Virus record (IMG/VR): IMGVR_UViG_3300020171_000004 | Coordinates: 1-64,000 of that record | Length of the DNA stretch: 64,000 bases | Direction: 5' to 3' (one strand) | From: a virus | In this document: positions 3,896 to 37,699 of the stretch, piece by piece | Layout of the letters: the number at the start of each line of letters is the position of its first letter | Numbering within the stretch: position 1 is the stretch's first letter | Notes under the pieces: generated by a model | Seen by the model: the letters and a program-made list of their open reading frames with translations, nothing else | What the model was told of the DNA's origin: nothing | Databases searched by the model: none | Made by a program: the position numbers and the translations under genes

Positions 3896-3909
3896 GTTCA
3901 TATTTGAAC
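3896..3909. repeat. GTTCA-N4-TGAAC palindrome, copy d
   Basis: The sequence gttcaTATTtgaac lies in the 71-nt gap between genes 3942..4187 and 2959..3870. Confidence 0.8.
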
Positions 3910-3941
3910 GACAAGTTTTCATCAGTTAAATTGAAAATTAT

Positions 3942-4187
3942 TTATAAATCATCTTGCGTTATTGGATTAGTTGGATCAATAAAAACTTCCGTAGCTTCAG
4001 GTCGATGCACTGGTACACTTTGTTTTTCACCTAAAGGCTTAGGATCAGAATATTGTGGATGCTTCTCTTCCCAACAAGTATCAGCGCAAACAAATAGCTT
4101 ATCCCATGTCATTCTACAATCAGAAGCATAACGCTCAAAGCCACACTGGTCACAAATTACTAAATAATCTCCAGGTCTGTAAGTCAT
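3942..4187 (-). CDS. Cys-rich small protein, 81 aa
   Basis: ATG start directly after the upstream TAA. It has a CDQCG...CADTC cysteine pattern (zinc-ribbon-like). Confidence 0.5.
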   Translation of the reverse strand: MTYRPGDYLVICDQCGFERYASDCRMTWDKLFVCADTCWEEKHPQYSDPKPLGEKQSVPVHRPEATEVFIDPTNPITQDDL

Positions 4188-4325
4188 TTATTTGCCTCGT
4201 AGTAATTTTATAAAACTCTTCCACCATTTTTTTACAGGAACAGTAACCATAAATGAAACAGTTTTAGCCTTTTCTGGTGGACCATTAGGTGATTGGTCAA
4301 ATCTTTGCCATTTTGACATATTCAT
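4188..4325 (-). CDS. Small basic protein, 45 aa (below the track cutoff)
   Basis: Hand-translated as MNMSKWQRFDQSPNGPPEKAKTVSFMVTVPVKKWWKSFIKLLRGK. Its start overlaps the endolysin stop as ATGA, and its stop abuts the next ATG. Confidence 0.3.
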   Translation of the reverse strand: MNMSKWQRFDQSPNGPPEKAKTVSFMVTVPVKKWWKSFIKLLRGK

Positions 4326-4753
4326 TTACCATCCAAATTATAAAATTTAATCCTACCTATTCGTGCAACAAATTTGCTTTGAACAGCCCATTTTGGATTT
4401 GGAATACTGACATCAAAATATGAGTCTGCACCAGGGACAGGATTGACATCTAACCCTAAAAGTGCACTGTGTGCTGCCTTCAAACACTGTTTCCATGATG
4501 GGTCACTAGTTATTGGCCACTTAGTAAGTTGTCTGTCTTTTGGGTCAGTAACAGATGAAAATTGCCAAGGATCAAATAAAACACCCATAACATCACGACC
4601 CCACCATCCAGGATGTGCCACTCTGTTTAGCACAACATTAGCAACCCCAAGTTGTGCTTGATAAGATTCACCTCTAGCCTCTCTCCATATCACCAATGCT
4701 AGCATAGCCATATCAGCGTTTCTTTGTAATACATCAGTCATATTATCATCCAA
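4322..4753 (-). CDS. Cell-wall hydrolase, SleB/Hydrolase_2-like (endolysin candidate)
   Basis: The motif ALVIWREARGES...GVANVVLNRV...FDPWQFS matches the SleB-type cell wall hydrolase signature from memory. Confidence 0.75.
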   Translation of the reverse strand: MDDNMTDVLQRNADMAMLALVIWREARGESYQAQLGVANVVLNRVAHPGWWGRDVMGVLFDPWQFSSVTDPKDRQLTKWPITSDPSWKQCLKAAHSALLGLDVNPVPGADSYFDVSIPNPKWAVQSKFVARIGRIKFYNLDGK

Positions 4754-4862
4754 TTAAATACACAATTATCATTCCGATTTCGTCGTAAATTTACCATTAT
4801 TCGACAGTAAATATCCCAACTATCTGTTCGAAGTACTTTTCGTCTAAAATCTACTATTACGT

Positions 4863-5147
4863 TCATTCTTTATCGTCACCGTAGATTTTCTCATAGGCCG
4901 CTACGACTGCAAGGTAAACTTTGTTTTTCGCCACAGTACCAAACCCTCTTGCCTTTAAGTCATTAATTACATATTCTACAGCAGCCTTTCTCTTTTCTGT
5001 TCCAGTGCCAGTTATGGCCGCGGCATACTTTACGGCATCTATAGCGGTCTTTGACAGCTCCACCCCCAGATCAGTAAGATAAATCTTGAGAGATGGCAAC
5101 AGAAAACTCCAAACTGCTGACATAAACAATCGTATTGCTGTAATCAT
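4863..5147 (-). CDS. Single-pass membrane protein, LL-H-type holin-like (94 aa)
   Basis: N-terminal TM segment (AIRLFMSAVWSFLLPSL) followed by GTEKRKAAVEYVINDLKARG, which resembles LL-H holins. It lies next to the endolysin. Confidence 0.45.
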   Translation of the reverse strand: MITAIRLFMSAVWSFLLPSLKIYLTDLGVELSKTAIDAVKYAAAITGTGTEKRKAAVEYVINDLKARGFGTVAKNKVYLAVVAAYEKIYGDDKE

Positions 5148-5148
5148 T

Positions 5149-5580
5149 TTATTTCTCCTTTAATTTTAACTGTTTAGCTATTTTATTCACGTCAGGTAAA
5201 AAAGCAGGACTGACAATAATACCCGCTGGACCTGCGCCATATCCTCGCAAATACCATGATGCATGTCCATCGTCAAATACTACGTCATACTCTCCCCATT
5301 CAACGCTGTTTTTATACCAAGAGTAAAAACTTTCATATCCGTTTTTACTATTATCCGATGTACCAATAAATTTAGTTATAACAACGTACCCCTTGTGTGT
5401 CCCATCATCAGAGTATGCCAATTCTCCCTCAAACCAATACTGATCGGTATAAACTCCAGTAGTCATGTCACAGTCAAAATAAACAACAGGTACGGTTTCT
5501 GAATGAGCTGCACAACCAGAAATAATATTGGTTATACACAGCAATGCCACTGCCCATAATGTTAATGAAAAATATTTCAT
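5149..5580 (-). CDS. Lipoprotein, 143 aa
   Basis: The signal peptide has the lipobox LLCITNIISGC. The start overlaps the upstream Zn-ribbon stop as ATGA. Confidence 0.6.
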   Translation of the reverse strand: MKYFSLTLWAVALLCITNIISGCAAHSETVPVVYFDCDMTTGVYTDQYWFEGELAYSDDGTHKGYVVITKFIGTSDNSKNGYESFYSWYKNSVEWGEYDVVFDDGHASWYLRGYGAGPAGIIVSPAFLPDVNKIAKQLKLKEK

Positions 5581-5726
5581 CTCAAGTCTTTATGATGTGA
5601 CAATAGTTCTGCAACTTCGCTTGCAGTCTTTGCGTAAATCTTTCCACAAGGAATACAGATCACTCCACCATCGTGGTTTCTTACACATTCTTTTTTGCAT
5701 TTAGGGCAAATAAACTTATGTTTCAT
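5577..5726 (-). CDS. Zn-ribbon protein, 49 aa (copy 1, below the track cutoff)
   Basis: Hand-translated as MKHKFICPKCKKECVRNHDGGVICIPCGKIYAKTASEVAELLSHHKDLR. It has ATGA overlaps at both ends. Confidence 0.55.
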   Translation of the reverse strand: MKHKFICPKCKKECVRNHDGGVICIPCGKIYAKTASEVAELLSHHKDLR

Positions 5727-6037
5727 TGGTAGTCACTCCCAGATATTTTTTGTTTAACTTCTGCAGAACCAATACCGATCTTCTTAGAAGAAATAATAGT
5801 TGATATCATATTAAATGCAGCTAACAGTGCGACTACTCCAGCGACAGCTGCGTCAACGAGAGTTTGAATCCACTCCTGAGTAATTTCAAAATCTATAACG
5901 CCGAAGAATTTAAGCGCCCAAGCAACAGCACCAACCAAGAAAACAAGATTAGAAACAAGAGATCCAGTTTTCCAAGATTCAGGATTAGCAACTTCCTTGC
6001 CTTTCTTCAGTGCTCTAAGGATATCACCAAGTACCAT
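5723..6037 (-). CDS. Two-TM membrane protein, holin-like (104 aa)
   Basis: Start moved to ATG 6037, preceded by GAGGGAG. Two hydrophobic helices are present (LVSNLVFLVGAVAWALKFFGVI and AVAGVVALLAAFNMISTII). Confidence 0.5.
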   Translation of the reverse strand: MVLGDILRALKKGKEVANPESWKTGSLVSNLVFLVGAVAWALKFFGVIDFEITQEWIQTLVDAAVAGVVALLAAFNMISTIISSKKIGIGSAEVKQKISGSDYQ

Positions 6038-6038
6038 T

Positions 6039-6188
6039 TTACTCCCTCTCTGTAATGTTATCTTTAAACCATCTATCAATTAGCATCAGCGTATTTTTAC
6101 CGTGGCTTTCTTCATGGTTTTCATGAATGCTCCGAGTGCAGGCTGACAGCATAATAATGATCAACAGTATGCCTAAATTACGAATCAT
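6039..6188 (-). CDS. Small lipoprotein, 49 aa (o-spanin-like)
   Basis: An internal ATG of track ORF 6039..6299 gives MIRNLGILLIIIMLSACTRS..., with lipobox LSAC. It overlaps the peptidase 3' end by 11 nt. Confidence 0.45.
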   Translation of the reverse strand: MIRNLGILLIIIMLSACTRSIHENHEESHGKNTLMLIDRWFKDNITERE

Positions 6189-6687
6189 TACGTACCTTAA
6201 ATCGAGGAATACCCATGTCCTGCAGGTCGGTATCGGCAACTGCTGGAGTATCTCTACCTGGAAGGATAACACCATCAACTGACAGTATTTTTTTAACATA
6301 CTCGACGCAACTTGTTACATCATTATCCCTATTATTAAAACCCCACTGTGCCAAGATAGCCTCTGGTTGACTATATGCAAAACCTACTTGCCGCATAGCC
6401 TCAGTCAATCCAGCCTCTGATAACTTAGATTTACGTGGGTACCAGTAAAAATCTCCCATCTTACTCAATGGGAAAATGCGAACCAATGGTTGAACAGCTT
6501 CAAATATCATCACCCTATCGCCAACCACCCATGCCAACCCAAAATGAGCAAGAGGAGATTTAGTAACGTGCATCACCACTTGAACCTTCTTATCATACCA
6601 AGATGCTGATTTTTCATGTGTAAAAGCAATAGGATCACCGCTATGGATAAGCCGACGCATTTCACTATATATTAAAGGTTTACTCAT
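6178..6687 (-). CDS. Permuted papain-fold (YiiX/NlpC-P60-like) peptidase candidate, 169 aa
   Basis: The pattern GDPIAF...SPLAHFGLAW...IFEAV, with a late catalytic-type Cys (TSCVEYV), resembles permuted papain-like amidases. This rests on memory only. Confidence 0.45.
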   Translation of the reverse strand: MSKPLIYSEMRRLIHSGDPIAFTHEKSASWYDKKVQVVMHVTKSPLAHFGLAWVVGDRVMIFEAVQPLVRIFPLSKMGDFYWYPRKSKLSEAGLTEAMRQVGFAYSQPEAILAQWGFNNRDNDVTSCVEYVKKILSVDGVILPGRDTPAVADTDLQDMGIPRFKVRNDS

Positions 6688-6959
6688 TAATTTCCACCAC
6701 TTTTATGCCATATGCCAATACTTATTAAGCCTATAATAGAACCTATAAGTAAAACTATTAGTGTGTTCCACACTGTCTTTTTTGTCCCATCAAAAAACTC
6801 ATTCAGGTTTTTATAAAATTTAACAGCTTCGCTTAACTCTTCCTTGGTCACAGGGCAGTCACATTCATGTATCTTTACAATTGCCGCTGCTATTGCATGT
6901 ATATCCGCATCTGACAACATCATAGCCCGTCTCTCAAATTCTATTGGCATATCTTCCAT
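6687..6959 (-). CDS. C-terminally anchored membrane protein, 90 aa
   Basis: Start moved to ATG 6959 (MEDMPIEF...), which removes the overlap with 7000..7473. The C-terminal TM segment is TLIVLLIGSIIGLISIGIW. Confidence 0.45.
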   Translation of the reverse strand: MEDMPIEFERRAMMLSDADIHAIAAAIVKIHECDCPVTKEELSEAVKFYKNLNEFFDGTKKTVWNTLIVLLIGSIIGLISIGIWHKSGGN

Positions 6960-6999
6960 ATATGTCCTTTTATAAGAAGTTAATGATATACCAACAGAA

Positions 7000-10453: not shown

Positions 10454-10454
10454 A

Positions 10455-12468: not shown

Positions 12469-12494
12469 TTTTTACCACTCTTTTTTAAGGGCAA

Positions 12495-12520
12495 TGTTGG
12501 AAGATTGTCCACTTCCAACA
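12495..12520 (-). other. 9-bp perfect hairpin between the capsid and downstream genes
   Basis: tgttggaag / cttccaaca with an 8-nt loop. It may be a partial terminator or an RNA stability element. Confidence 0.4.
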
Positions 12521-12544
12521 CCAGTATTAAAATTAGTTTCAACC

Positions 12545-12558
12545 GTTCAAAAATGAAC
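12545..12558. repeat. GTTCA-N4-TGAAC palindrome, copy e
   Basis: The sequence gttcaAAAAtgaac lies 10 nt 3' of the major capsid stop codon. Confidence 0.8.
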
Positions 12559-12567
12559 GTTGATTAG

Positions 12568-15863: not shown

Positions 15864-16121
15864 TTAATAACCATCTTGGTTAACTTCATCCTGTTCTTCT
15901 ATCGAAGCATAGTGTATGTTCAGCAACTGATCAATACCGTCAAGCTGTCCAACAGCACGATTAGTAAAACCATGCGTTGACTGTGCATCACCACCAATAG
16001 TATTCCCATTCGCTAACTGATCTTTGATAGACTCTTTTACCTTCATAAGCTCGCTGAAAATCTCTTTCGTAACTGGATGCTGTTTCCATTCTGCAAACTG
16101 TTCTGCACTAATCATTATCAA
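15864..16121 (-). CDS. Hypothetical head-module protein, 85 aa
   Basis: The track ORF has a TTG start, and an ATG lies two codons in. Its start overlaps the stop codon of the upstream DUF2829-like gene. Confidence 0.45.
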   Translation of the reverse strand: MIMISAEQFAEWKQHPVTKEIFSELMKVKESIKDQLANGNTIGGDAQSTHGFTNRAVGQLDGIDQLLNIHYASIEEQDEVNQDGY

Positions 16122-16630
16122 GTCTCCTTAAAATTAACTACTCTCATTTGAAGCACTCTATGATATTCTAACATTATTTCAAGTTGTTTATTAAGTAAGT
16201 TAAAATCAAGTTCATCTAATTTTTTTGTTTTATCAAAATCAGTAATAAAAACAGTTAAATTAATAATTTTATTACTTAATTCTTTTTGTTCAGTTAAAAC
16301 TCTTTTTTGATAATCTTTCATCTTAATCTCCTTTATTGCTTCTACAATAAACCAATCATTATCAAGCATATCAGATTGACTTGCTACCCAACCTGGAATC
16401 CATTCTTCTTGGGCATTATACATAGCAAAGTATGGTTGACAATTCAGTGGCTTATCTTCACCAATAAACTTTGCAGTGCGATCATTTACTTTTCTAAATG
16501 TTCCTTGAGTGTTAAATGAGGGAAGGTGCAGTGGATCCATATAAACTACATACATATTTTTACCATTCCACTTCTTACGAGCAATCTTCTTCCCCTGTTT
16601 GGCAACTCTTATAGCATCTCCAAAATCCAT
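16118..16630 (-). CDS. DUF2829 (Tad2-like) domain protein with a C-terminal helical extension, 170 aa
   Basis: Start moved to ATG 16630 (GAGGAG 7 nt upstream). MDFGDAIRVAKQGKKIARKKWNGKNMYVV...YFAMYNAQEEWIPGWVASQSDMLDNDWFIVE matches the DUF2829 signature (WNGK ... PGW.ASQ.DMLA.DW) from memory. Confidence 0.7.
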   Translation of the reverse strand: MDFGDAIRVAKQGKKIARKKWNGKNMYVVYMDPLHLPSFNTQGTFRKVNDRTAKFIGEDKPLNCQPYFAMYNAQEEWIPGWVASQSDMLDNDWFIVEAIKEIKMKDYQKRVLTEQKELSNKIINLTVFITDFDKTKKLDELDFNLLNKQLEIMLEYHRVLQMRVVNFKET

Positions 16631-16631
16631 G

Positions 16632-18809
16632 TTAATTCTCCTCATTGTTAGTCTCTAGTCCATATTCTCTCTTTGCTGTACTTTCAGTAATACCGTTTGG
16701 TGCTTTACCAATACTCATCTGAGTTCTTCCAAGTTCAATCTGATTATTTACTGACTTTTCTTCAAGATCAAGTTTTCTAGAATCATTCTGAATGCCAGCA
16801 ACATCTTTAGCTTGCTTAACTTCTGCATGTGGAATTTCAGCATAAATCTTTTCAGTCTCAGCCTTAAGTTTTTCGATCTTAGCGCTAAGTTCTTCCAACT
16901 TCAGTTGCATCTCCTGCATGGCCATCTGTTCTTCAGGCTTGCCACCTTCAGGCTCTTCAGGAAAGAACTTTTCAATATCTTCAATATCAAGTGCAATCAA
17001 GTATCTACGTAAGATCTCTTTATCATCCAATCCTGATCCACGAAGATCAAGAAGTGCCTTAGCCTTCAGCAGTCTCTGAACCATCGTAGTAGCATTCGGA
17101 TCACTTACTGGTTCAATATCAAAATCACTACTAGAAAAATCAGCCTGAACAATAGCTTGTGCATTGTCAAGAACTAAGCCATAAGTCATCTGATCAAGAT
17201 AAAGTGCATTCAATCGTTTGATCTTCTTGAACTCTTTATACTGTGCTCGATGAATTCGTTTATGAACAGCCAAGTAAACTTGCAATCCCTGTTCAATAAG
17301 TGCCAAGACTGATTCTGCAGGAACATTTGCACCTGGAGAATTACCAGCCAAGATCTCTGTCATTCCAGCAAGTTCTTTTCCTGATTCAATCAGTAAGCCT
17401 AGCAACTGAAACAACGTTGTGCTAGGTTCTCTGATTGGCATTGGAAAGACGTTCTTACGCAGATCATCACCAGTAACATCAACTGGTTTCCACTCACCAG
17501 ATTTCAGTTGAATAGACTTACCACGACCAAGCTTCAAACCACGACCAAGGAATCCTGACTGCCTATTGCTCAATGTTCCAGCATCAATCAGCTGGTTCAG
17601 TAAAGTATTGATAGCACTGTTCGTGCTCATTAACAAACTGCCGAAACCCATTCCATAAAAACCACCATCTACTGATGGCATGAACAGGTAACGAGTAAAA
17701 TACTGTTCTGGAATGATTTTAACTATTTCACCGTTTGGATCTTGAACGCCTTGAGCAGTGTTAGTTCTAATTACTCCATCAGATGCCCAGCGAGGTGAAA
17801 TTCTGACAAGCTTTTCTGTCTGTGCATGAATCGTTACAATGTAAGGTTCTTGATAGCCATCACCATCAAGATCATACCAGCGATGCTGCTCAAGAAATAA
17901 ATGTGGCGTTTCATCATCTACGTCAGAGGTCTTGTCAGAGGTTGCTTGACCAAGTGAGGCAATATCAAACTTTATAAAGGTACCAGAGGTGATTCTCTCG
18001 ACTATCTCGTTATGATAGAGGAAGATTCTGTGGGTAACTCGTGGTGCTCGTTCAAGAGATTCAGCAAAATAATTTACTATTAGATCATCTGCAAAGACTA
18101 AGCTAGAGATATTCTTTCGCTCGATGCTATCAAAGTAACTCTTCTTAAAGGCACAACCAATTGCAGGTAGCGTAAACAGCAACTGATCCACACCTTCTTC
18201 CCAACCATCCATATGAGAAAGAAGCTGAAAAGACATGAACTCACTGATGCGCTGAGACTTTTCAAGTTTCGCTCCGGTAGGATCAGCTCCTATGACCTTG
18301 CCACGAACTACATTATTGCCTTTGATTAGCTCTGGATATGCACGTGAAGCAAATTGCATACATGCATTGATGATCAGTGGATACTTAACGTTTGCTACAA
18401 CTTCACCAGCATAAGTTTTCTTCTTGACATGAAGCTTAGCCAGATCAATGATTTGCAGATTAAGTGCTTCCCACTCAGTACGACTAGCAAGATCAATCTT
18501 ATAACCTTCAATTGCTTTGGTTGTAATGTCAGAAATGATGTCAGCTTTTTGCTGATCTGCAATATTGGTTACTAGAACTAATGCTTCTGCCCGAAGAACT
18601 TCTTTCTCAATAGCTTGCTCAAGTACTTGATCAGCAGGCTGATTTTGCTCATTGAGGATGTCTTCAACTGGTTGCTCTGATGCCCAGACTGGAACATCCT
18701 GAACATTAGATATTTCCTGGTCAGGTAAGGCTTGTGTTCCTGTGGCGCCCATCCCGGCGTTGCCGGTCTGGTCGAGATCAGGGGATTCGTAAGGTTGCAT
18801 CATTGGCAT
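16632..18809 (-). CDS. Portal protein, 725 aa
   Basis: Supported by its size and its position immediately after the large terminase and before the head genes. Confidence 0.7.
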   Translation of the reverse strand: MPMMQPYESPDLDQTGNAGMGATGTQALPDQEISNVQDVPVWASEQPVEDILNEQNQPADQVLEQAIEKEVLRAEALVLVTNIADQQKADIISDITTKAIEGYKIDLASRTEWEALNLQIIDLAKLHVKKKTYAGEVVANVKYPLIINACMQFASRAYPELIKGNNVVRGKVIGADPTGAKLEKSQRISEFMSFQLLSHMDGWEEGVDQLLFTLPAIGCAFKKSYFDSIERKNISSLVFADDLIVNYFAESLERAPRVTHRIFLYHNEIVERITSGTFIKFDIASLGQATSDKTSDVDDETPHLFLEQHRWYDLDGDGYQEPYIVTIHAQTEKLVRISPRWASDGVIRTNTAQGVQDPNGEIVKIIPEQYFTRYLFMPSVDGGFYGMGFGSLLMSTNSAINTLLNQLIDAGTLSNRQSGFLGRGLKLGRGKSIQLKSGEWKPVDVTGDDLRKNVFPMPIREPSTTLFQLLGLLIESGKELAGMTEILAGNSPGANVPAESVLALIEQGLQVYLAVHKRIHRAQYKEFKKIKRLNALYLDQMTYGLVLDNAQAIVQADFSSSDFDIEPVSDPNATTMVQRLLKAKALLDLRGSGLDDKEILRRYLIALDIEDIEKFFPEEPEGGKPEEQMAMQEMQLKLEELSAKIEKLKAETEKIYAEIPHAEVKQAKDVAGIQNDSRKLDLEEKSVNNQIELGRTQMSIGKAPNGITESTAKREYGLETNNEEN

Positions 18810-18812: not shown

Positions 18813-20327
18813 TTAATAACCTGTAACATAACTAGTTTCTGATTCATTATAGATTTCTGACTCTTCCCAAGCTTCAAATTCCCAATAAGGTTTAGCAATA
18901 GCTCGCTGAAGTCCAGACATAACAAAGTAACGCATGCAATCCATTAAGTGATCACGATCTTTGACAATCTGACCATTCTCATCTCGGCGATAGATACGAA
19001 ACTCAGAAAGTAAATTAACTAATGTCCCAAATATCTTGAGCTTTCCAGTAGCAAGCATTTGCCAAGTTTTATAAAGCCCAGACTCAATTGACTTATTTGC
19101 ATTAGTTATATCAAGACCAAGTGTCATGTAAATTTCAAAGAGTTGCTTACCATCTTCCTGCGAACGCCCATGAGCTGCAGAATCTATGACTCCTGGAATC
19201 CAAAAGCCTCGAGCCTTGATTCCTTCAGCATGAATTACAGGTTCTGCCATGCCTTGATAGTATTCCGAGAACAAGAATGTTATACCACTTGTAGGATCAG
19301 TTGCGCCCCAAAGGCAGGCAGTTTTTTTCCAACCAACATCAAGAGCATAAGCTTTCTTCCAATGATCAGGAATAGGGAAATCATTTACTACAATATTGCT
19401 CTCTAGGATTGGATAAATTGCACCAGAGCCAAGCTGTGGAACTCCTTTAGATCTTGCTTCACGTTGGTGCGGCGGCAGAGCAGCAAAGAGTTTATCCTTT
19501 TGTTCTTTGGTAAGATGTGGAGCATCATCCCAAGTAGCTTGAATCAAGAACCTTGAACCTTCTTGATGTTCTTCGATTTTGCCTTCAGGCATGAACTGTA
19601 GGACTGTTTCAGTAAGTCCTGCAAGTGGCGTAAAGGTTAGCATGATCAAACCATTGGTCGTCATGGTTCGAGTCAAGCATTCAGTATATATATCTAATGG
19701 ACATTCCTCGTCTAACCAAATTAGATCTTGTTCTGTTCCTTCGAATGACTTTCTACCTTCAGCATATGATTTGATCTTGATACGTGAAATTCCACCTGAG
19801 ATATGCTGAACAAGGATTGTGTCTATTGCATTCGGAACACCACCAGCACGAGGTGTTGTCTTAAGAATGTACTTTTCTGGGATCAGACCTGTTCCGTGTT
19901 CCTCTGGTGTGCCGACTAGTTTGAACTGAACAATATCACGGGCTGTTGTGCTGGTTGTTCCGCAAGCCCATACAGTTACAGGCTGAGTAAAACGATGACC
20001 AGGCCACCAATCAGAATATCGCCCAGTTGCATGAAGAGTTGTTTCATACGCGCCAATTCCCTCGCTCTTACCTATACGATTTGCCGCCATGATGCATCGC
20101 TCTGGAAATTTGCTACCAGCAGCAAAGAATTCCATATGCTTTGGATAGTTATGGCGGCTAAGAAGTCCAGTTTCTGGATAATACTGAATGATGCGATTTT
20201 GTTTTATTCTGGCTGACTTTTCTTTTAATAGTTTAAGATATTGTTCCTTCTGATCTCTATTCAACGTAGAGATGTCTGCTAAGATCTGATCAGTTGATGG
20301 AATAATATTTTGGCTAAGTTCTTGCAT
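18813..20327 (-). CDS. terL: Terminase large subunit
   Basis: Walker A-like AANRIGKSEG and Walker B LIWLDEECP, followed by a nuclease-type C-terminal half. It lies upstream of the portal. Confidence 0.85.
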   Translation of the reverse strand: MQELSQNIIPSTDQILADISTLNRDQKEQYLKLLKEKSARIKQNRIIQYYPETGLLSRHNYPKHMEFFAAGSKFPERCIMAANRIGKSEGIGAYETTLHATGRYSDWWPGHRFTQPVTVWACGTTSTTARDIVQFKLVGTPEEHGTGLIPEKYILKTTPRAGGVPNAIDTILVQHISGGISRIKIKSYAEGRKSFEGTEQDLIWLDEECPLDIYTECLTRTMTTNGLIMLTFTPLAGLTETVLQFMPEGKIEEHQEGSRFLIQATWDDAPHLTKEQKDKLFAALPPHQREARSKGVPQLGSGAIYPILESNIVVNDFPIPDHWKKAYALDVGWKKTACLWGATDPTSGITFLFSEYYQGMAEPVIHAEGIKARGFWIPGVIDSAAHGRSQEDGKQLFEIYMTLGLDITNANKSIESGLYKTWQMLATGKLKIFGTLVNLLSEFRIYRRDENGQIVKDRDHLMDCMRYFVMSGLQRAIAKPYWEFEAWEESEIYNESETSYVTGY

Positions 20328-21037
20328 TAGTTTCGAAATAAACTAGCTGGCAGCTTAGATAACAAAGAAATGGATTCTTCCGACGTTGATACAGGAGAAT
20401 TTGGAAGATTCATATGACAGTCAAGCGATTCATCTTGGTGATTATCTTTAAAGAAATTAACAAGTTGATCGGAAGAATCCATATCTTCAGCATCTAAATA
20501 TTCAAGGTCTTGTTCAGTTTCAATGGTTAATTCTGGCTGTTCATCGGTGAACACATCAAACTCAGTAGCGGATGTTTTTGGTAAAGGATCTGCAAGTTGA
20601 TTTGGATCTTGTTTGTAGGTCTTTGCAATTGACTGTTGCATTGCATTGATTTCAGCGTCGATTTCTTGATCTGTCTTAGTCTGCATTGTCATGTCAACAT
20701 GCAATCTGTCTGGTGCTTTGTAACCTGTTCGATCAAGGACATCTTTTGCCGCAGTGAGCTGAACTGAGTGAGGTGCTTTCTCGGCAGGATTCATGATGCG
20801 CTCAAGAACACTCAGGGCAGAAGTATTCATACTCACGAGTTTTTTACGAACATCAAGTGTTGATTCTTGAGCTTTATCTTGCAGGCCTTCAAGGTAGGCT
20901 TGGCCAAGAGGAGACCTGATGATCTGGCTAACCGTACAATCTGACATTTCCATGCGCTCAGCTATGTCTTTATTCTTATAACCTGAAAAGGCCATTTGAA
21001 TTATTGTTCGATGTTGAGTGCGCAGTTCTTTCAGCAT
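20327..21037 (-). CDS. Terminase small subunit candidate with an N-terminal HTH, 236 aa
   Basis: A LuxR/sigma-r4-like HTH (YKNKDIAERMEMSDCTVSQIIRS) and an acidic C-terminus. Its stop overlaps the terL start. Confidence 0.55.
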   Translation of the reverse strand: MLKELRTQHRTIIQMAFSGYKNKDIAERMEMSDCTVSQIIRSPLGQAYLEGLQDKAQESTLDVRKKLVSMNTSALSVLERIMNPAEKAPHSVQLTAAKDVLDRTGYKAPDRLHVDMTMQTKTDQEIDAEINAMQQSIAKTYKQDPNQLADPLPKTSATEFDVFTDEQPELTIETEQDLEYLDAEDMDSSDQLVNFFKDNHQDESLDCHMNLPNSPVSTSEESISLLSKLPASLFRN

Positions 21038-21250: not shown

Positions 21251-21800
21251 GACATTTAATCTCCTGGATTATTTGTTAGTTCCTGGAATATAAAACTGTG
21301 TATGTCCGTCCAGGAGTCGGTAAAGATAGCGAGTCACCACACACAATAAACAAATTAGCATTTATATTAGAAGCGTAACCTTTTTAACGTAGGATTGCAA
21401 GCAAATAGTGAATGGTGACAAAGTTTCGCAAATGACACATTTTGCCGTCATTGTTGCAGATCGCTGGATTATTTTTCGAAGGCTGACTGGTGATTCGCCT
21501 TAGCGAAGTTTCTTGATTGTTTGATCACTTTAGCGAGTTTGGTGCAAAGTTCCCTAATGACGACATTTCTTAGAGTCTGCCCTCCACAACTCATAGGTGA
21601 AAGGCATTATCCGTCATATGGGATCGAGGCATCGGGTCTGTGGCAGTTAGGCACACAAGAAAATTGTTCCCGTTCTTGCAGTTATTTCAAGAATCAATAT
21701 TAAATAATAATTACTCATAACAGAGAAACATTCCCAAACATAATCAACTCGAATAGATAGTGAAGCATTTATTGAACGTTAAACTATTTCAAAATAAAAC

Positions 21801-21829
21801 TTGACAATGGTATTAATGTGGAATAGATT
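21801..21829 (+). promoter_or_regulatory. Early promoter P1 (sigma70 consensus-like)
   Basis: TTGACA-17 nt-TAGATT, preceded by the A-rich aaactatttcaaaataaaac. Confidence 0.7.
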
Positions 21830-21884
21830 AACAGTATCAGGAACGGAATAGTTTTAACATTTTTAAACTATCTCAAAATAAAAC

Positions 21885-21913
21885 TTGACAACCATAAAAC
21901 TTGTGAGTATATT
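21885..21913 (+). promoter_or_regulatory. Early promoter P2
   Basis: TTGACA-17 nt-TATATT. The upstream 20 nt (aaactatctcaaaataaaac) is nearly identical to that of P1. Confidence 0.7.
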
Positions 21914-21985
21914 AAAGTTATCAACAATGAAATAGTTATACAGATAACAAACCTTGAATGGTTGCAACTGTAAACAAATTAATTG

Positions 21986-22014
21986 TTGACAAGAACGAAA
22001 CAGTTTTATATAGT
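21986..22014 (+). promoter_or_regulatory. Early promoter P3
   Basis: TTGACA-17 nt-TATAGT, about 45 nt upstream of the first plus-strand ORF. Confidence 0.65.
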
Positions 22015-22060
22015 AGAAATTAAGAGAACTTAAAGTACAACCTTAACCTTGGAGAATATT

Positions 22061-22171
22061 ATGAACTCTTACATTTTAGAATCTTTTGAAAATTACAGAA
22101 TACAAGAAAGTTACTTCATTTCAAAAAGGCTCTTTCAGTTTATTACAAAAGAAATTTTACGGAGGAACTAA
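22061..22171 (+). CDS. Small early protein, 36 aa (below the track cutoff)
   Basis: GGAGAA lies 5 nt before the ATG. Hand-translated as MNSYILESFENYRIQESYFISKRLFQFITKEILRRN. Its stop abuts the next ATG. Confidence 0.3.
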   Translation: MNSYILESFENYRIQESYFISKRLFQFITKEILRRN

Positions 22172-22384
22172 ATGAAAAACATAACAATATGCTTAAAACC
22201 TGAAACGATAAAACAATTTAAGGAACTGGCAACCTTGAAAGGATATTCAATTTCTGGCTGGATAAATGCAAAGATGGAAGAAGAAATTACCAAAACGAAA
22301 ACTGTAGAGGAACAAAAACTTTTTGCACTTCTATGCAAACTAACCAAAGAAGAACTAAATAAATTGTATGAATTATATTTATAA
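22172..22384 (+). CDS. Ribbon-helix-helix (Arc/CopG-like) DNA-binding protein, 70 aa
   Basis: ITICLKPETIKQFKELATLKGYSISGWINAKMEEE fits a strand-helix-helix pattern. It is the first sizeable early gene. Confidence 0.5.
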   Translation: MKNITICLKPETIKQFKELATLKGYSISGWINAKMEEEITKTKTVEEQKLFALLCKLTKEELNKLYELYL

Positions 22385-22389
22385 AAAAC

Positions 22390-22418
22390 TTGACAAGTAA
22401 TGAGATAATTAGTAAGAT
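22390..22418 (+). promoter_or_regulatory. Early promoter P4
   Basis: aaaaaacTTGACA-17 nt-TAAGAT. The downstream tatcagggaaagaatagtt resembles the leaders of P1 and P2. Confidence 0.65.
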
Positions 22419-22493
22419 TTAAACTATCAGGGAAAGAATAGTTCTTAGCCTTGAAAATGTGGAATAATCCACAAAACCAAAAGAGGTGACATC

Positions 22494-23146: not shown

Positions 23147-23186
23147 TGAGCCGGATATGATCCTTTGTGATTATATTCGGCTTTTG
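23147..23186 (+). terminator. Rho-independent terminator candidate
   Basis: Stem agccggatat / atattcggct (one G-U pair) with a 14-nt loop, followed by TTTTGT. Confidence 0.5.
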
Positions 23187-23230: not shown

Positions 23231-23244
23231 GTTCATTGGTGAAC
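23231..23244. repeat. GTTCA-N4-TGAAC palindrome, copy a
   Basis: The sequence ggCTGTTCAttggTGAACAG gives a 7-bp stem and is intergenic. Confidence 0.8.
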
Positions 23245-23462
23245 AGATGGAAGGAAAATGTGTCCGAATGTGATTTATTTGTGGCTGAATTGTGGCTGAA
23301 TGTGGTCAAACGTACACAAAAGAAGTGTGTACAAACGTACCCAAACGGCCACAAAACAACCTGTACACGGTGACAAAACACACATGACCACAAAAAGAAA
23401 TTGTAATGATTTCAACATGTTAGCTTTATGTGGTGATAATTGTGTGTGAAATGTGGGCAACC

Positions 23463-23572
23463 GTACACCACCCTCCCGTCTCTAAGAGATTAGTTGGTAG
23501 TAGGAATTATTATTAAATTTTTTTTTTTAAAGCCTCCTAAAGACTCCATATCCTTAAGGGAGGGTGGTGTAC
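23463..23572. repeat. 15-bp perfect inverted repeat flanking an 80-nt A/T-rich spacer with a T11 run
   Basis: gtacaccaccctccc (23463-23477) pairs with gggagggtggtgtac (23558-23572). The T11 run is at 23518-23528. The flanks extend the dyad imperfectly (gtgtgtg...tgtgg versus ccac...cacacac). Confidence 0.85.
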
Positions 23573-23845
23573 ACATGACCACAAAACGCACACACCGACC
23601 AAACATTCCCCGTAATATCAACCACTTAGCAAAACAAACCGTAACCAAAAACAGGCACACTTAGCAACAAACCGCACCAAAACAGGCACAAACCGCACCA
23701 ACAACACATACAAGACAGCTACAACCGGACACAACCGGACACAAAAAACAGTGGACAAACGGCCACAACCGTGTTAAATTGTCACCATACCGCACCACTG
23801 AGCAAAACGCTCACCAAATCAACAAACCTCAAAAGGAGAATCACC

Positions 23846-27243: not shown

Positions 27244-27257
27244 GTTCATAATTGAAC
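27244..27257. repeat. GTTCA-N4-TGAAC palindrome, copy b
   Basis: The sequence gcTGTTCAtaatTGAACAac lies 18 nt 3' of the stop of 26645..27226. Confidence 0.8.
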
Positions 27258-27295: not shown

Positions 27296-27559
27296 ATGAA
27301 AAGCATCAGAGTAACTATTAGATTAACACCATATCAACTAGCACGCGGCCTACAAACAATCAGGCAGCTCAAACCAGATTACAAATTAATCAGTATCAAT
27401 GATCTTGTCAAAACAATCTATCAGATTTATTTAACTAAAGATATTATGAATAAGTCTGATGAAGTCCCAACTAGCCTCTTAGAGGAAATCCTAAGCTTCT
27501 CAAACAAATCAGCTGAAAAGCAAATAACTCTGCAAGACTTACTCAACATTAAAAACTAA
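27296..27559 (+). CDS. RHH-like early protein, 87 aa (paralogue family)
   Basis: MKSIRVTIRLTPYQLARGLQTIRQLKP parallels the N-terminus of 23846..24433. Confidence 0.5.
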   Translation: MKSIRVTIRLTPYQLARGLQTIRQLKPDYKLISINDLVKTIYQIYLTKDIMNKSDEVPTSLLEEILSFSNKSAEKQITLQDLLNIKN

Positions 27560-32766: not shown

Positions 32767-32910
32767 GGAGGAAGCTGAAAATAAAAAAGGTTTAAAGGTG
32801 AAAGAAAGTTGTTGCTTTTGTTGGTCGGGTGTGTTATTGTTTTTTTCATGGTTATGAAAAACCCGAATTTTCCCTGATGCCCCTTTTAAGCCCTTTTGAG
32901 ACTAAATGCC

Positions 32911-33555
32911 ATGAATGAAAAAACTGACCAACAATTATTAAAGGAAGAATATGATTACCTTCCTGAAACTGGTTTGTTACTATCTAAAAGAACCGGTAAA
33001 CCTGTAGGTCAGTTTTATAAATCAGGTTATTTAGTACATCATTTTAAAAATAAGCCTTGCAATGTTCATAGATTAATTTATTGTTGGTATCATGGTTATT
33101 TCCCAGAACATCATGTAGATCATATTAATCAGTGTAAAGTAGATAATAGGATAATCAATCTTAGGGAAGTAACTCCTGCATGTAATTCAAAAAATGTAAA
33201 TCTTCGAATAAATAGTGTTTCAGCTGTTTGTGGTGTAAGAAAAGATCGTTATTCTGATAAATGGAGTGTTAGAATTAGTCATAATAATGAGCATATATTT
33301 ATTGGGCAATTTACACACTTCATCAATGCTGTTAAGGCACGATATTATGCAGAGGAACTGTTTGGTTATACTAGATGTAATCCGGTTAGTACTGCGGCTG
33401 AATATTTAATGAAAAATTTAAATAAGGAGGATATTGATGAACAAGATTTGCCAGCAGTGAAAACAGTTAGTGGCGAATGGGATTATTTTTGTTTAGCTAA
33501 AAAAGAAAAAATTTATGAAAAAGCCCTGAAGTTAGGTGTTATTAAAGATACATAA
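32911..33555 (+). CDS. HNH homing endonuclease with an AP2-type DNA-binding domain
   Basis: VHRLIYCWYHGYFPEHHVDHINQCKVDNRIINLREVTPACNSKN (HNH) followed by GVRKDRYSDKWSVRISHNNEHIFIGQF (AP2-like). The start is taken at ATG 32911. Confidence 0.75.
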   Translation: MNEKTDQQLLKEEYDYLPETGLLLSKRTGKPVGQFYKSGYLVHHFKNKPCNVHRLIYCWYHGYFPEHHVDHINQCKVDNRIINLREVTPACNSKNVNLRINSVSAVCGVRKDRYSDKWSVRISHNNEHIFIGQFTHFINAVKARYYAEELFGYTRCNPVSTAAEYLMKNLNKEDIDEQDLPAVKTVSGEWDYFCLAKKEKIYEKALKLGVIKDT

Positions 33556-34068: not shown

Positions 34069-34096
34069 GATATCAGCAGGTGCTGGGAGTCTGACA

Positions 34097-34118
34097 GCCT
34101 GGAAAGACAGGCACTTTT
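34097..34118 (+). terminator. Rho-independent terminator candidate
   Basis: gcctg-gaaaga-caggc followed by acTTTTaTT. Confidence 0.45.
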
Positions 34119-34167
34119 ATTATAAAATATTTTTGATTCAATCAATTTAACCTTGAGAGGATTTCTC

Positions 34168-34353: not shown

Positions 34354-34377
34354 AAATTTTTGAATGGGATTTTTCAA

Positions 34378-35361: not shown

Positions 35362-35387
35362 AGCACAAACATTTAAAGGAGTTTTAA

Positions 35388-35852
35388 ATGGGTAATAAAC
35401 ATTCTTCATTAGCACAAGCTTTTTTATCTGGTTTAGCGCCTAACCTAAACGCTGATGATTGTTGGCCTTGGTTAGGAAATACGAATTATAAAGGTTATGG
35501 TGAATTTTATTTTCAAGGTAATCGTTATAGAACACATCAATTATCTTATCAAATTTTTAATGGAGGAAATGAAAAGAATCTTTTAGTTATGCATACTTGT
35601 GATAATCCTTGCTGTGTAAATCCTAAACACCTAATTTTAGGTACTCATCAGGAGAATATAATTGATTCAGTTAAAAAAGATCGTTGGCATAAAGCAAAAT
35701 TGAATGTTGAGTGTGTAAAAGTTATTAAGTGGATGTTGAAGTATAAGCCTGAAAGAGGTCTTGCATCTAAGTTAGCACGATTACATGGTGTTGGACGATC
35801 AGTGATTTCTGAGATTGCTGCTGGAAAAGTATGGTCTTTTGTTAAAGTTTAA
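35388..35852 (+). CDS. HNH homing endonuclease, 154 aa
   Basis: CWPWLGNTNYKGYG...THQLSY...HTCDNPCCVNPKHLILGTHQEN. Confidence 0.75.
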   Translation: MGNKHSSLAQAFLSGLAPNLNADDCWPWLGNTNYKGYGEFYFQGNRYRTHQLSYQIFNGGNEKNLLVMHTCDNPCCVNPKHLILGTHQENIIDSVKKDRWHKAKLNVECVKVIKWMLKYKPERGLASKLARLHGVGRSVISEIAAGKVWSFVKV

Positions 35853-35867
35853 TTATAGGTGGATAAT

Positions 35868-36659
35868 ATGGAAAATAAAACGAAAACATTAGTTCCACCA
35901 AATAAACAAAGGCTGGCAAATAAAGAGCGGAAATTTAATTTAAAATTTCTACTTACAGGAAATTCAGGATCTGGTAAAACGCATTTTACTGTTACTTATA
36001 CTTCTGGACCGATTCATTATTACATGTTTGACCATGGTGGGGAGAAAACAATTGAAAAGATTGCGGCAAAACGAACTGATATAACACTTGATAATTTTTC
36101 AAGCAGTAAGCAAATGTTCAGTGATTTTTGGCATCAATTCCAGGAAGATGAAAAAGCAGGCTTATTCGATTGGCTTGCAGAAAATAATGGCTTGCTTGTA
36201 ATTGATAGTTTGACGAATGTTAATCTTAAGGCCATTGAAGAAATTGCTAAAAAAGCTGGAGTTACTCCAAGTGGTATTGGCAAGCGAATTGATATGAAAC
36301 TTGGCATGGCTCCACCACATTGGGGTCAGTTGCTTAATTGGATGACTACTTTCGTTAGTACACTACAGGAACTTCCTTGTGCAGTAGCAGTGACAGTTCA
36401 TTTGCATACATTGATGAATTCAAATCAAGAAGTAGTTGGTAGGTATCCAGCAGTTAATGGACAGTTCAGACAGCTTCTGGCATGTGATTTTGATGAAGCA
36501 TATCTGCTGACAACTCAAGGAACTAAACGTCAAATCTTCTTTACAGAAAAACTTAGCTTTGAAGCAAAATCAAGAGTATTTGATATGCCAAAAGTCGAAG
36601 GTATAACGCTCGATCAACTAGCTAAGGCTTATTTAGCTGGCAAGACAACTATTTCATAA
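35868..36659 (+). CDS. Sak4-like (AAA_24/RecA-fold) recombination ATPase
   Basis: Walker A GNSGSGKTH and Walker B LLVIDSLTN. The start is taken at ATG 35868 rather than GTG 35859. Confidence 0.65.
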   Translation: MENKTKTLVPPNKQRLANKERKFNLKFLLTGNSGSGKTHFTVTYTSGPIHYYMFDHGGEKTIEKIAAKRTDITLDNFSSSKQMFSDFWHQFQEDEKAGLFDWLAENNGLLVIDSLTNVNLKAIEEIAKKAGVTPSGIGKRIDMKLGMAPPHWGQLLNWMTTFVSTLQELPCAVAVTVHLHTLMNSNQEVVGRYPAVNGQFRQLLACDFDEAYLLTTQGTKRQIFFTEKLSFEAKSRVFDMPKVEGITLDQLAKAYLAGKTTIS

Positions 36660-36670
36660 AAGAGATTATT

Positions 36671-36928
36671 ATGGCCTGGAGAATATTAAAACAACCTAAT
36701 GGAAAACTTGCAAGATTTTCTGATGTTGTTGATGATTTTACTCATTTTGATATGACTGAAGAAGAAGCAATTGAATTGTGTAGAAAATCTATGGGAGAAC
36801 GTGATGCAAAAGAAAAAGTTTCACGTGCAGAAGAAAATGGAAAGCATTTCTTAGATGAGATTGATACAATTAAAATAGTTCATGGTAAAAAAAGATCTGA
36901 AGAATGTAAAATTGAGTTATCCACATAA
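36671..36928 (+). CDS. Hypothetical protein, 85 aa
   Basis: An intact ATG ORF. Confidence 0.45.
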   Translation: MAWRILKQPNGKLARFSDVVDDFTHFDMTEEEAIELCRKSMGERDAKEKVSRAEENGKHFLDEIDTIKIVHGKKRSEECKIELST

Positions 36929-36942
36929 TACGGAGAATTATT

Positions 36943-37128
36943 ATGGCACGTATGGCAAGACTTATTATTTATGATGCTGATGATCTTTCTTTAACAAAAC
37001 AATTAGCAGGATCTTTGTCTGAAGGTTTACACGAAAAAGGTAAAGTAAGTATTATGATTATCAATCTTGCAGCAGATCCGCTTTTAAATGGTATAGTGCA
37101 AGATTTAACTAAGAAACAAGATGATTAA
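36943..37128 (+). CDS. Hypothetical protein, 61 aa
   Basis: An intact ATG ORF with a GGAGAA RBS. Confidence 0.4.
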   Translation: MARMARLIIYDADDLSLTKQLAGSLSEGLHEKGKVSIMIINLAADPLLNGIVQDLTKKQDD

Positions 37129-37135
37129 CAAGTGG

Positions 37136-37163
37136 GGTCTGAGAATATTTCTTAGATCTTTTT
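37136..37163 (+). terminator. Rho-independent terminator
   Basis: A 10-bp stem (ggtctgagaa / ttcttagatc, two G-U pairs) with a 3-nt loop, followed by T5. Confidence 0.6.
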
Positions 37164-37190
37164 AACAACAAATAAAAAAGGAGTTTTATC

Positions 37191-37616
37191 ATGTCAATGA
37201 TCCCTAACCTGTCCGATATTCCTGACAAAGCACCAGTTGAAGCAGGTGAGTATGATCTTCGAGTTTTCAAGGTAAAGGAGACTAAATCTCAGCGTACTGG
37301 CCGTTATGGTTGTATGCTTGTTTGTGAGATTGATGGTGAAGATAATGCAAATAACGTCTTTCATACACTCTGGTATGGTAATTACAAAGACTTTCAGGGC
37401 GATGATGAAGAAAAGAACAATATGATGTGGAGAATGGTTAAGGACTTCTTGACTTCTCTCGGCCTTGATCCCAATGAGGAGACTGACGAGAGTGATCTTG
37501 TTGGACTTGAGTTCTCTGCTGATTTGAGTTTTAATGATGGAATGAGCACTGATGATGATGGCAATCCTATTAAAGTCGGTCAGCCCCGGAATGAAATTGC
37601 CAGAATTACTGGTTAA
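37191..37616 (+). CDS. DUF669-like single-strand DNA-binding protein candidate, 141 aa
   Basis: The N-terminal pattern PVEAGEYDLRVFKVKETKSQRTGRYGCMLVCEI plus an acidic tail. It lies next to the Sak4-like ATPase, as DUF669 proteins usually do. It has a strong RBS and host-like codons. Confidence 0.55.
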   Translation: MSMIPNLSDIPDKAPVEAGEYDLRVFKVKETKSQRTGRYGCMLVCEIDGEDNANNVFHTLWYGNYKDFQGDDEEKNNMMWRMVKDFLTSLGLDPNEETDESDLVGLEFSADLSFNDGMSTDDDGNPIKVGQPRNEIARITG

Positions 37617-37644
37617 GCGTCAGATCAGTTTAGCTGATTAAACT

Positions 37645-37699
37645 TTGCTGTTCACTTATGAACGAACTGTTGAATGGTTTGTAAGTAAGTGAACAGCAA
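37645..37699. repeat. GTTCA-N4-TGAAC palindrome copy c, nested in an 11-bp long-range inverted repeat
   Basis: The local hairpin is gctGTTCActtaTGAACg (37650-63). ttgctgttcac (37645-55) also pairs perfectly with gtgaacagcaa (37689-99). Confidence 0.8.

Follow-up and report, generated by a model that had tools for sequence, protein, structure and literature searches.

The stretch of DNA considered here corresponds to positions 1 to 64,000 of the IMG/VR virus record IMGVR_UViG_3300020171_000004. This window of 64,000 nt covers most of the ~65.8-kb genome of an uncultured phage, and scattered along it are copies of the palindrome GTTCA-N4-TGAAC, the element with which this work is concerned. The structural genes are found on the minus strand (1-21.2 kb and 53.5-64 kb) and encode the small and large terminase subunits (terS and terL), the portal, an HK97-like capsid protein and a polyvalent protein of 2455 aa, the head genes being podovirus-like. 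The early and replication genes occupy the plus strand from 22.2 to 53.4 kb and specify a UvrD-like helicase, a PD-(D/E)XK nuclease, an AAA_24 protein, a DUF669 protein resembling single-stranded DNA-binding proteins (SSB-like) and an NAD ligase, together with a fusion of a ParB domain and a methylase, DNA polymerase A, a DUF3987 protein, exonucleases, a RepB-type primase, ThyX and three HNH proteins. Among the proteins scanned (Pfam, PHROGs), neither an integrase nor an RNA polymerase or sigma factor came to light and, because an integrase is missing from that set, the phage appears to be virulent.

The original prediction, made from the sequence, described five copies of the palindrome, all of them in intergenic gaps, and considered that they might be either a short RNA hairpin or the operator of a dimeric DNA-binding protein, possibly one of the ribbon-helix-helix (RHH) type. 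The coordinates and sequences of these five copies proved to be correct in every case. However, a scan of the window yielded eight exact copies, starting at 3896, 12545, 20539, 23231, 27244, 37650, 50090 and 58776 (Table 1), those at 20539, 50090 and 58776 having been missed. The enrichment itself was confirmed, since 100 dinucleotide-preserving shuffled controls contained a mean of 0.14 exact copies and a maximum of 2, whereas one-mismatch variants appeared in the window at chance level (2 extra versus ~2.9 expected). When spacings from N0 to N14 were scanned in the window, a single N12 was the only addition to the N4 copies, and no other 5-N4-5 palindrome occurred there more than three times. 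The pentamers GTTCA and TGAAC are mildly over-represented in the window (86 and 96, versus 66 and 70 expected), but the enrichment is confined to the N4 spacing, and chance or pentamer abundance was rejected as the source of the copies. On a simple gene map, five copies are intergenic, one overlaps the end of an open reading frame (ORF) and two lie within genes; the intergenic share of the window being ~11%, the probability of finding at least five of eight copies in it is 7e-4. Thus, the notion that every copy occupies an intergenic gap holds for the five initially named, but not for 20539 and 58776, which are inside genes, nor for 50090, which overlaps an ORF. Some details also changed: the longer left arm GCTGTTCA, attributed to three copies, is common to five; the capsid copy starts one position closer to the stop codon than the 10 nt announced (Table 1); and the copy said to lie just after the SSB-like gene does follow the DUF669 gene, its start being 34 nt past the stop. 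A literature search with the motif string found no paper.

Table 1. The eight exact copies of GTTCA-N4-TGAAC in the window
Copy	Coordinates	Strand	Sequence or position
1	3896..3909	-	minus strand reads AAAACTTGTC-GTTCA-AATA-TGAAC-aAACTTG
2	12545..12558	-	9 nt past the major capsid stop
3	20539..20552	+	within the small-terminase gene (20327-21037, -)
4	23231..23244		7-bp arms CTGTTCA/TGAACAG; orientation ambiguous in the window
5	27244..27257	+	18 nt past the stop codon of the 193-aa gene; a conserved gene of 87 aa (27296-27559) begins 38 nt further on
6	37645..37699 (core 37650-37663)	+	follows the DUF669 SSB-like gene
7	50090..50103	+	TAACTTTTT-GTTCA-TTTC-TGAAC-ggcaAAACT
8	58776..58789	+	within the 2455-aa polyvalent-protein gene (53482-60849, -)

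Conservation and anatomy of the motif

A search with the capsid protein retrieved 345 related IMG/VR stretches, of which 80 capsid-bearing loci were kept for motif inspection (single relatives are designated below by L numbers). All eight positions occupied in the window correspond to conserved positional classes in the IMG/VR relatives. In the capsid class, the motif was found 5-13 nt past the capsid stop in nearly all of the 80 loci, with eight loci lacking a match (two of these end at a contig edge), and the matches, which include N5 variants and one arm variant, differ in their spacers (TAAG, TAAT, TAAA, TTTA, AAAA and others). The copy at 3896, flanked on one side by a small ORF (3942-4187) and on the other by the gene of a virion protein with its likely ATG at 3869, has counterparts at L001:19313 and L004:20026, and the class of the copy at 23231 is present at L003:607, L005:805, L008:506 and L065:237. 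Alignment of the intergenic regions that follow the 193-aa and the SSB-like genes showed that the two arms alone were invariant, while the spacer and the surroundings had diverged; in the case of the copy at 27244, the arms were the sole invariant block in the aligned regions. The copy at 50090 falls in the final 25 nt of ORF 49872-50114, with 29 nt separating its end from the primase gene (50133-51134) downstream. Of 18 relatives, 16 keep this copy ahead of the primase region, and in 11 the two are directly adjacent. Direct repeats flanking the motif were also considered as the target-site duplication of a tiny mobile element, an explanation that was rejected given that the sites are orthologous and ancient.

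From 63 non-redundant oriented sites, an extended consensus was derived, AACTTG-N-Y-GTTCA-Y-W-W-R-TGAAC-R, which is longer than the motif first noted and asymmetric. The AACTTG element is one-sided and occupies positions -8 to -3, with C(-6) in 54, T(-5) in 59 and G(-3) in 45 of the 63 sites. On the opposite side a purine is found at +15, just after the motif, and AACT is enriched at +16/17 or +20/21 (24 of 63 sites versus ~2 expected); otherwise this 3' side is weakly conserved, with at most 0.33 bits from +16 to +24 and no single conserved position. A count made without regard to orientation, comprising 117 unique sites and hence 234 half-sites, revealed a two-fold symmetric half-site, Y-GTTCA-Y-W, with Y(-1) in 228, Y(6) in 203 and W(7) in 204 of the half-sites. 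The arms were invariant across the 117 unique sites, and the pair formed by -1 and +15 displayed no preference for complementarity (T.G 25, T-A 15, C.A 15, C-G 5).

The exactness of the arms was evaluated by collecting all sequences bearing the flank CT[TG]GNY in 1.39 Mb (the window plus relatives). This returned 63 exact and unique N4 sites; five others carried two mismatches, a single mismatch was not seen in any, and no compensatory changes between the arms were seen among the sites in the window and its relatives. The spacing is equally restricted, for N4 was counted 132 times across relatives and N5 17 times, every other spacing reaching at most 7. In the subclade formed by L058, L060, L062 and L065, the five flank-bearing sites are N5 without exception. 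Such a concerted change points to a reader that measures the spacing and that has co-evolved with its sites.

Judged by the AACTTG flank, the copies at 3896 and 12545 (minus strand) and those at 37650 and 50090 (plus strand) are in the sense orientation, whereas the orientation scores of the copies at 23231 and 27244 are tied in the window. Both classes located inside genes carry the flank antisense to the mRNA, and do so consistently in relatives. The copy at 20539 has its CT(T/G)G-N-Y flank on the plus strand, antisense to terS, and is kept in relatives with the flanks CTTGGT, CTTGCT or CTGGTT. In the copy at 58776 the flank AAATTGCT is also on the plus strand, antisense to the giant gene, and the copy is kept in L089, L091, L098, L100 and L104 although the flanks differ; as read from the sequence, its retention demands particular codon choices (xxG TTC ... 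GAA C, with Ser as TCG).

A proposed dimeric protein on duplex DNA

The combination of invariant arms that do not covary, a spacer free in sequence and fixed in length, a concerted shift of that length and two-fold degenerate positions argues for one trans-acting reader that measures distance. A distance-measuring reader of two identical half-sites is, most simply, a dimer on duplex DNA. The operator anticipated in the original prediction gained support from the arms, the spacer, the half-site and the change from four to five nucleotides, but its connection with RHH proteins could not be established. It is tentatively proposed, with considerable room for doubt, that the copies are duplex-DNA sites for a dimeric protein acting at the boundaries of gene blocks, much as stoperators or KorB sites do. 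According to this proposal, one highly sequence-specific and two-fold symmetric protein (dimeric or of higher order), probably encoded by the phage, would bind the Y-GTTCA-Y-W half-sites; the one-sided AACTTG at -8 to -3 would confer polarity on the complex, either through an extra subunit or domain or through a contact with RNA polymerase; and the bound protein might modulate the passage of RNA polymerase, that is, the read-through between the blocks of a long unit fed by the four early sigma-70 promoters.

These four promoters, of near-consensus sequence, are found at 21790-22420, with -35 hexamers from 21801, 21885, 21986 and 22390. They have AAAACTTGACA in common, three of them sit in repeated cassettes 'aaaataAAACTTGACA...', each with a similar leader ending in AATAGTT, and strong intergenic promoters cluster nowhere else in the window than at 21.8 to 22.4 kb. 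The first late gene is preceded by a good -10 element (TATATT) without a -35, which suggests an activator-dependent late promoter. The sigma-70 promoters and the AGGAG-type ribosome-binding sites indicate that the host uses standard bacterial signals. No sigma-70-like promoter was systematically found near the palindromes when -35/-10 pairs were sought around each site and genome-wide, and in several classes the next Shine-Dalgarno sequence starts only 7-25 nt after the motif (7 nt in L083), thus leaving no room for a downstream promoter. The location at a boundary, past a stop codon and ahead of the ribosome-binding site that follows, together with the absence of promoters and the sense orientation of the flank, suggests an effect on the passage of RNA polymerase. 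The in-gene copies, kept against codon preference and with the flank antisense, favor in turn a role at the DNA level.

Sets of protein-binding sites conserved along the genome are already known in phages. Stoperators of the L5 type, the sites of the gp71-type immunity repressor in Cluster A mycobacteriophages, consist of more than 20 copies of one short sequence, located in short intergenic spaces and at promoters, with an orientation that follows transcription (PMC9283540). The present sites, about eight in number, are similar in that most of them occupy short intergenic spaces. Their asymmetric flank is in the sense orientation in the intergenic classes and antisense in both in-gene classes, and the core itself is symmetric. 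In contrast, L5 stoperators are asymmetric 13-mers read by a two-domain monomer and serve to silence a prophage, whereas a perfect palindrome with a measured spacer is found here, which implies a dimer rather than a monomer, and two of the copies are in genes and reverse-oriented. Lysogeny genes are also missing, in that neither a repressor nor an integrase turned up among the proteins scanned. What is new is the combination: a palindrome with a measured spacer, a polar flank, all-or-none conservation and in-gene copies, in a virulent phage.

Several observations weigh against a dimeric protein that controls RNA polymerase. The all-or-none exactness is stricter than that of usual transcription factor regulons and looks rather enzyme- or ParB-type, and the rationale of stoperators, that is, the silencing of a prophage, does not apply because the phage appears virulent. 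The lineage of L027, L030 and L063 has an N5 capsid site plus an N4 site elsewhere, which is awkward for a rigid dimer. The statistics of orientation are weak, two antisense in-gene sites out of two corresponding to p = 0.25. Genuine covarying single-strand structure exists at two classes, those of the capsid and SSB-like genes, and the Y/R positions can also be read as purine-pyrimidine appositions at both ends of a hairpin stem. Finally, no reader protein was found, and the RHH candidates were left unconfirmed by profile, PDB and fold searches.

Regarding these candidates, ORF 22172-22384 gave Arc/ParD-like matches, although weak. The 87-aa protein (27296-27559) is conserved directly downstream of site 27244 in relatives and has a beta-alpha-alpha-like N-terminus; the PDB profile search with it gave noise only, its AlphaFold2 (AF2) model, with a mean predicted local distance difference test (pLDDT) of 77, had no Foldseek match with E < 1, and its fold as an RHH candidate was not confirmed by either type of search. 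Neither the hairpin nor the operator, as first envisaged, had foreseen the one-sided AACTTG flank, the copies within genes or the RepB'-type primase.

Alternative explanations

The alternative that fares best, although it is rather unlikely, is an RNA element, in which a GUUCA-N4-UGAAC hairpin would be read by a sequence-specific RNA-binding protein or an endoribonuclease and would set mRNA ends, stabilize the messages on either side or, in competition with a terminator, act in antitermination. It is in agreement with the six intergenic classes that carry a sense AACTTG flank between the stop codon and the next Shine-Dalgarno sequence, and with the coexistence of N4 and N5 in the lineage of L027, L030 and L063. 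Known systems available for comparison are the modules made of a ribonucleic antiterminator (RAT) and a terminator, read by BglG, SacY or LicT, and the stabilizer hairpins of T-even phages and T7. Like the latter, the capsid-class hairpin stands behind a highly expressed gene. There, an outer helix CAAC/GTTG lengthens the hairpin to ~12539-12563. Behind it come the AU-rich linker AAACTAATTTTAATACTGG, which is conserved, and a second hairpin at ~12494-12521, a classic layout for processing or stabilization. The outer helices of this class covary (CTTGG/CCAAG, CAAC/GTTG, AATTG/CAATT, TGAC/GTCG), and helices of at least 4 bp were present in 49% of the unique capsid-class sites versus 9% in shuffles. 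In the SSB class, the left arm and the 'loop' pair with a distal second right arm, TAAGTGAACAGC, so that a long hairpin can be formed (37645-37699, -40 kcal/mol, z = -6.4) with a T-rich tract behind it, and changes in the 'loop' columns are compensated in the distal arm. The small hairpin overlaps the 5' arm of this terminator-like one and the two are mutually exclusive, as in RAT/terminator pairs, although this resemblance concerns one of the eight classes.

However, these structures are not general. In the other classes, an outer helix of at least 4 bp was found in 10% of the sites versus 9.5% in shuffles, that is, at chance level, and the extended hairpin was rejected as a general property outside the capsid class. 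The bare hairpin, with 5-7 bp of which two are G-C, is weak (-3.8 to -7.6 kcal/mol as RNA, and -3.8 to -4.4 at four of the six folded sites). The hairpin proposed at the outset is thus borne out locally, after the capsid and SSB-like genes, and not elsewhere. Structure is real at two of the eight classes; it was built around the motif and does not define it. In addition, RNA hairpins are usually recognized by proteins through their loops and bulges, with the stems left to covary, whereas here the arms never covary and no one-mismatch survivor, G-U-compatible ones included, is seen among flank-bearing sites. It is the stem that does not vary and the loop that is free, contrary to what is typical of RNA-protein recognition. 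The loop sequence is free and yet its length shifts in concert in one subclade. No CAT/PRD-type protein (co-antiterminator and phosphotransferase regulation domains) was found in the phage, and the sites matched no Rfam family. The two conserved in-gene copies have the flank antisense to the mRNA, and site 23231 sits 48 nt downstream of a strong terminator-like hairpin (23148-23183). Nor do the copies look like intrinsic terminators, with a G+C-rich stem followed by a T tract and with a freely varying paired stem: most copies have no T-run behind them, such a tract being present only after the long SSB-class hairpin, the arms are invariant and without compensation, and none of the four palindrome copies in the scanned 20-39 kb was included in the terminator list for that region.

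A different possibility, which we regard as improbable, is that the copies act as single-strand initiation (ssi) signals for a RepB'-family primase, which would bind the 5' AACTTG tail and the base of the hairpin on single-stranded DNA and prime a few nucleotides 3' of it. The phage encodes a protein predicted to be an archaeo-eukaryotic primase (AEP) of the RepB' family (50133-51134): it matched Pfam RepB_primase PF16793 with 28.7 bits (the cut-off being 24.3), and its homologs carry PF16793; a profile of 30 sequences gave below E = 1 in the PDB only RSF1010 RepB' (3H25, 3H20), with the catalytic DD, D and R motifs aligned; and its AF2 model (pLDDT 86.5) was matched by Foldseek to S-2L PrimPol (E = 6.5e-7) and RepB', with probability 1.0 in each case. 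Nevertheless, the likeness to RepB' is limited to the catalytic core (template modeling score 0.29-0.48), S-2L PrimPol scores better, and the C-terminal domain is a Zn-ribbon (CPW..H..CHHGHC) instead of the RepB' helix bundle. For RepB', the signal must comprise a 5' tail of 6 nt and a hairpin, and priming begins 5 nt to the 3' side of the latter (PMC8567376). The sites described here have a comparable layout: six conserved nucleotides stand on the 5' side at a constant offset, the core is able to form a hairpin and AACT is enriched downstream. In most relatives, one of the sites immediately precedes the primase gene.

Another of them, that at 23231, directly adjoins on the left a non-coding region of ~550 nt (23256-23800) that looks like an iteron-type replication origin. 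This region is strongly A+C-skewed and contains four families of 17-19-nt direct repeats, including AATGTGGTCAAACGTACAC four times and CAAACGGCCACAAAACA four times, a 37-nt inverted repeat (23441-23477 / 23558-23594) and an AT run at ~23505-23530, an arrangement of one site beside iterons and an AT-rich stretch that recalls ssiA and ssiB in the oriV of RSF1010. The strand of the flank fits bidirectional replication from ~23.5 kb at six of seven sites, whereas a rule linked to transcription fits five of seven (the copies are 2.7-12.4 kb apart); the two rules are not separable because there are too few site classes. Priming signals would also account for the enzyme-like, all-or-none exactness and for the copies inside genes. 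On the other hand, loop length should be irrelevant to a RepB'-like reader and yet it is fixed at 4, or at 5 in one subclade, the 3' flank is weakly conserved and offers no fixed start nucleotide, the stem is made of 5 AT-rich bp versus 9-10 GC-rich bp in ssiA, the 5' tail of the capsid class is sequestered in the outer helix, and the terS site is on the wrong strand for an origin at 23.5 kb. Furthermore, ssiA and ssiB are 40-nt elements present once each within oriV, with a long GC-rich stem, unlike the eight dispersed sites of this phage with their rule for spacer length and a primase with another C-terminal domain. More distant phages with homologous primases (677 kb sampled) lack the GTTCA motif and any obvious substitute; when an analogous multi-copy palindrome was sought in them, the top 5-N-5 palindromes turned out to be orthologous coding positions, and the idea was abandoned. 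Just as doubtful is the broader picture of a virulent 65-kb phage in which DNA synthesis would start only at about eight strand-specific sites, each a hairpin with a tail, around an iteron origin, the priming of the lagging or displaced strand being programmed by the genome and not quasi-random.

It is very unlikely that the copies are centromere-like sites devoted to the organization of the genome, on which a ParB/KorB-type protein or a host nucleoid factor, clamp-like or bridging, would compact, partition or silence the phage DNA and would leave individual transcripts alone. A handful of exact palindromes per genome, dispersed, partly within genes and almost devoid of degenerate copies, resembles the sets of parS, KorB OB and matS. 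KorB OB and KorA OA in IncP plasmids and the parS sites of ParB are near-exact palindromes, with ~7-12 per replicon, read by dimers, many of them intergenic and some far from promoters, and the phage parallels them with several such palindromes per replicon (eight exact, with one-mismatch copies at chance). It also encodes a protein with a ParB-like domain at its N-terminus (41288-42739, residues ~1-120). However, this domain is fused to an N6/N4 DNA methylase, and neither a helix-turn-helix (HTH) nor a parS-binding domain was detected in the protein; no KorB/ParB-type HTH protein was detected in the phage and no partition ATPase was found among the proteins scanned; and the phage appears virulent. 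The strong intergenic bias and the oriented, one-sided flank would be unexpected for parS-like sites, and the copies are not at promoters.

Lastly, it is most unlikely that the sites are promoters, contiguous or activator-dependent and including hairpin promoters of the N4 type, for a phage-encoded or re-programmed RNA polymerase: in virulent phages, motifs that are dispersed, oriented and conserved between genes usually prove to be promoters, the flank AAACTTG is similar to the extended -35 region shared by the four early promoters, a purine is found at +15 and the primase gene behind site 50090 lacks a Shine-Dalgarno sequence, but no gene for an RNA polymerase or a sigma factor was detected among the scanned proteins, the giant protein has neither a DxDxD motif nor a PDB relative, several classes leave no space downstream for a -10 and a start site, the capsid-gene copy is immediately followed by another hairpin, antisense RNAs would arise from the in-gene copies, a -10-like element is not seen at any fixed distance and, unlike what is seen with N4 hairpin promoters, the early genes use palindrome-free sigma-70 promoters and the sites span the whole genome.

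With a dimeric protein on duplex DNA as the preferred explanation, some consequences can be considered. The clade is large (345 capsid-bearing IMG/VR stretches) and uncultured, with no close isolate, and a letter-perfect, fixed set of sites offers a direct handle on its gene expression or replication. The motif is a ready oligonucleotide bait for the reader protein, for instance as the 30-mer duplex AAAACTTGCTGTTCATTTGTGAACGAAC, and the subclade that changed from N4 to N5 represents a natural swap of specificity, whether the reader is such a dimer or a primase. Should the sites of this virulent phage be polar roadblocks to transcription, the principle of stoperators would reach beyond prophage silencing; should they be primase signals, they would mean sequence-programmed priming in a phage. 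The motif can be used as well as a marker to recognize and orient genomes of this clade in metagenomes.

Relatives, host and neighboring sequences

No isolated phage in the phage collection gave a nucleotide match to the window, and the closest cultured phages are distant, with a capsid identity of at most 55%. The host was also sought by scanning genome contigs with the extended motif. This gave 120 matches, chance-level singles from which no host could be assigned, and two small contigs from metagenome-assembled genomes (MAGs) alone were phage-related. These bacterial-MAG contigs, L186 (DYPS01000127.1) and L266, have close relatives of the DUF3987 and ligase genes, and one of the two is labeled Desulfosporosinus, from a sulfidic cave. 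They are probably mis-binned phage contigs, and at most a hint as to habitat; metagenomes from sulfidic caves and groundwater offer a lead to the host.

With respect to the primase, the gene in the window has no clear Shine-Dalgarno sequence, while neighboring genes have AGGAG-type sites. The same situation was observed in L089, L090, L092, L093, L094 and L100, in which the primase starts 20-30 nt past the palindrome with no recognizable Shine-Dalgarno sequence, whereas the genes inserted between palindrome and primase in some relatives do have one. Ten loci (L110, L113, L117, L125, L127, L133, L135, L141, L151 and L162) encode a primase 45-50% identical and lack the GTTCA motif; they contain another conserved non-coding element ~100 nt upstream of the primase start, made of CTGACC...GGTCAG inverted repeats plus direct repeats with a GGTTGCCGC core. 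Beside the SSB-class site of three relatives, a tRNA-like T-arm and acceptor end (GCAGGTTCGAATCCTGC...) was found between the SSB-like gene and the palindrome (L081:13330-13390, L082:12310-12370 and L083:13170-13230); the window has no tRNA genes.

Other non-coding regions deserve mention. The ~500 nt between the divergent late and early operons (21251-21790) are relatively G+C-rich and contain short inverted repeats, with no Rfam match, and an AT-rich gap of 500 nt without a called ORF, in which there are short repeats only, precedes the DUF3987 helicase-like gene (46299-46798). The first 2000 nt, which span virion protein genes (928-2019), have a G+C content of 48%, versus 31-43% in the remaining window.

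The 2455-aa protein (53482-60849, minus strand) includes an ADP-ribosyltransferase domain at residues 794-934, and PHROG families of giant proteins match its N-terminal ~500 residues only. The possibility that an RNA polymerase might be hidden in it was set aside, as profile searches gave no evidence of one and no PDB relative or DxDxD motif was found, although remote homology is still possible. Also in the structural module, the gene at 16118-16645 (minus strand) encodes a 175-aa protein with a domain similar to Tad2 (Thoeris anti-defense 2; E = 2e-23) and another related to crAss001_48. In the replication module, the three HNH endonuclease genes are free-standing (32896-33555, 35388-35852 and 51119-51493), and the variable gene insertions observed at these places in relatives are consistent with mobile homing genes.

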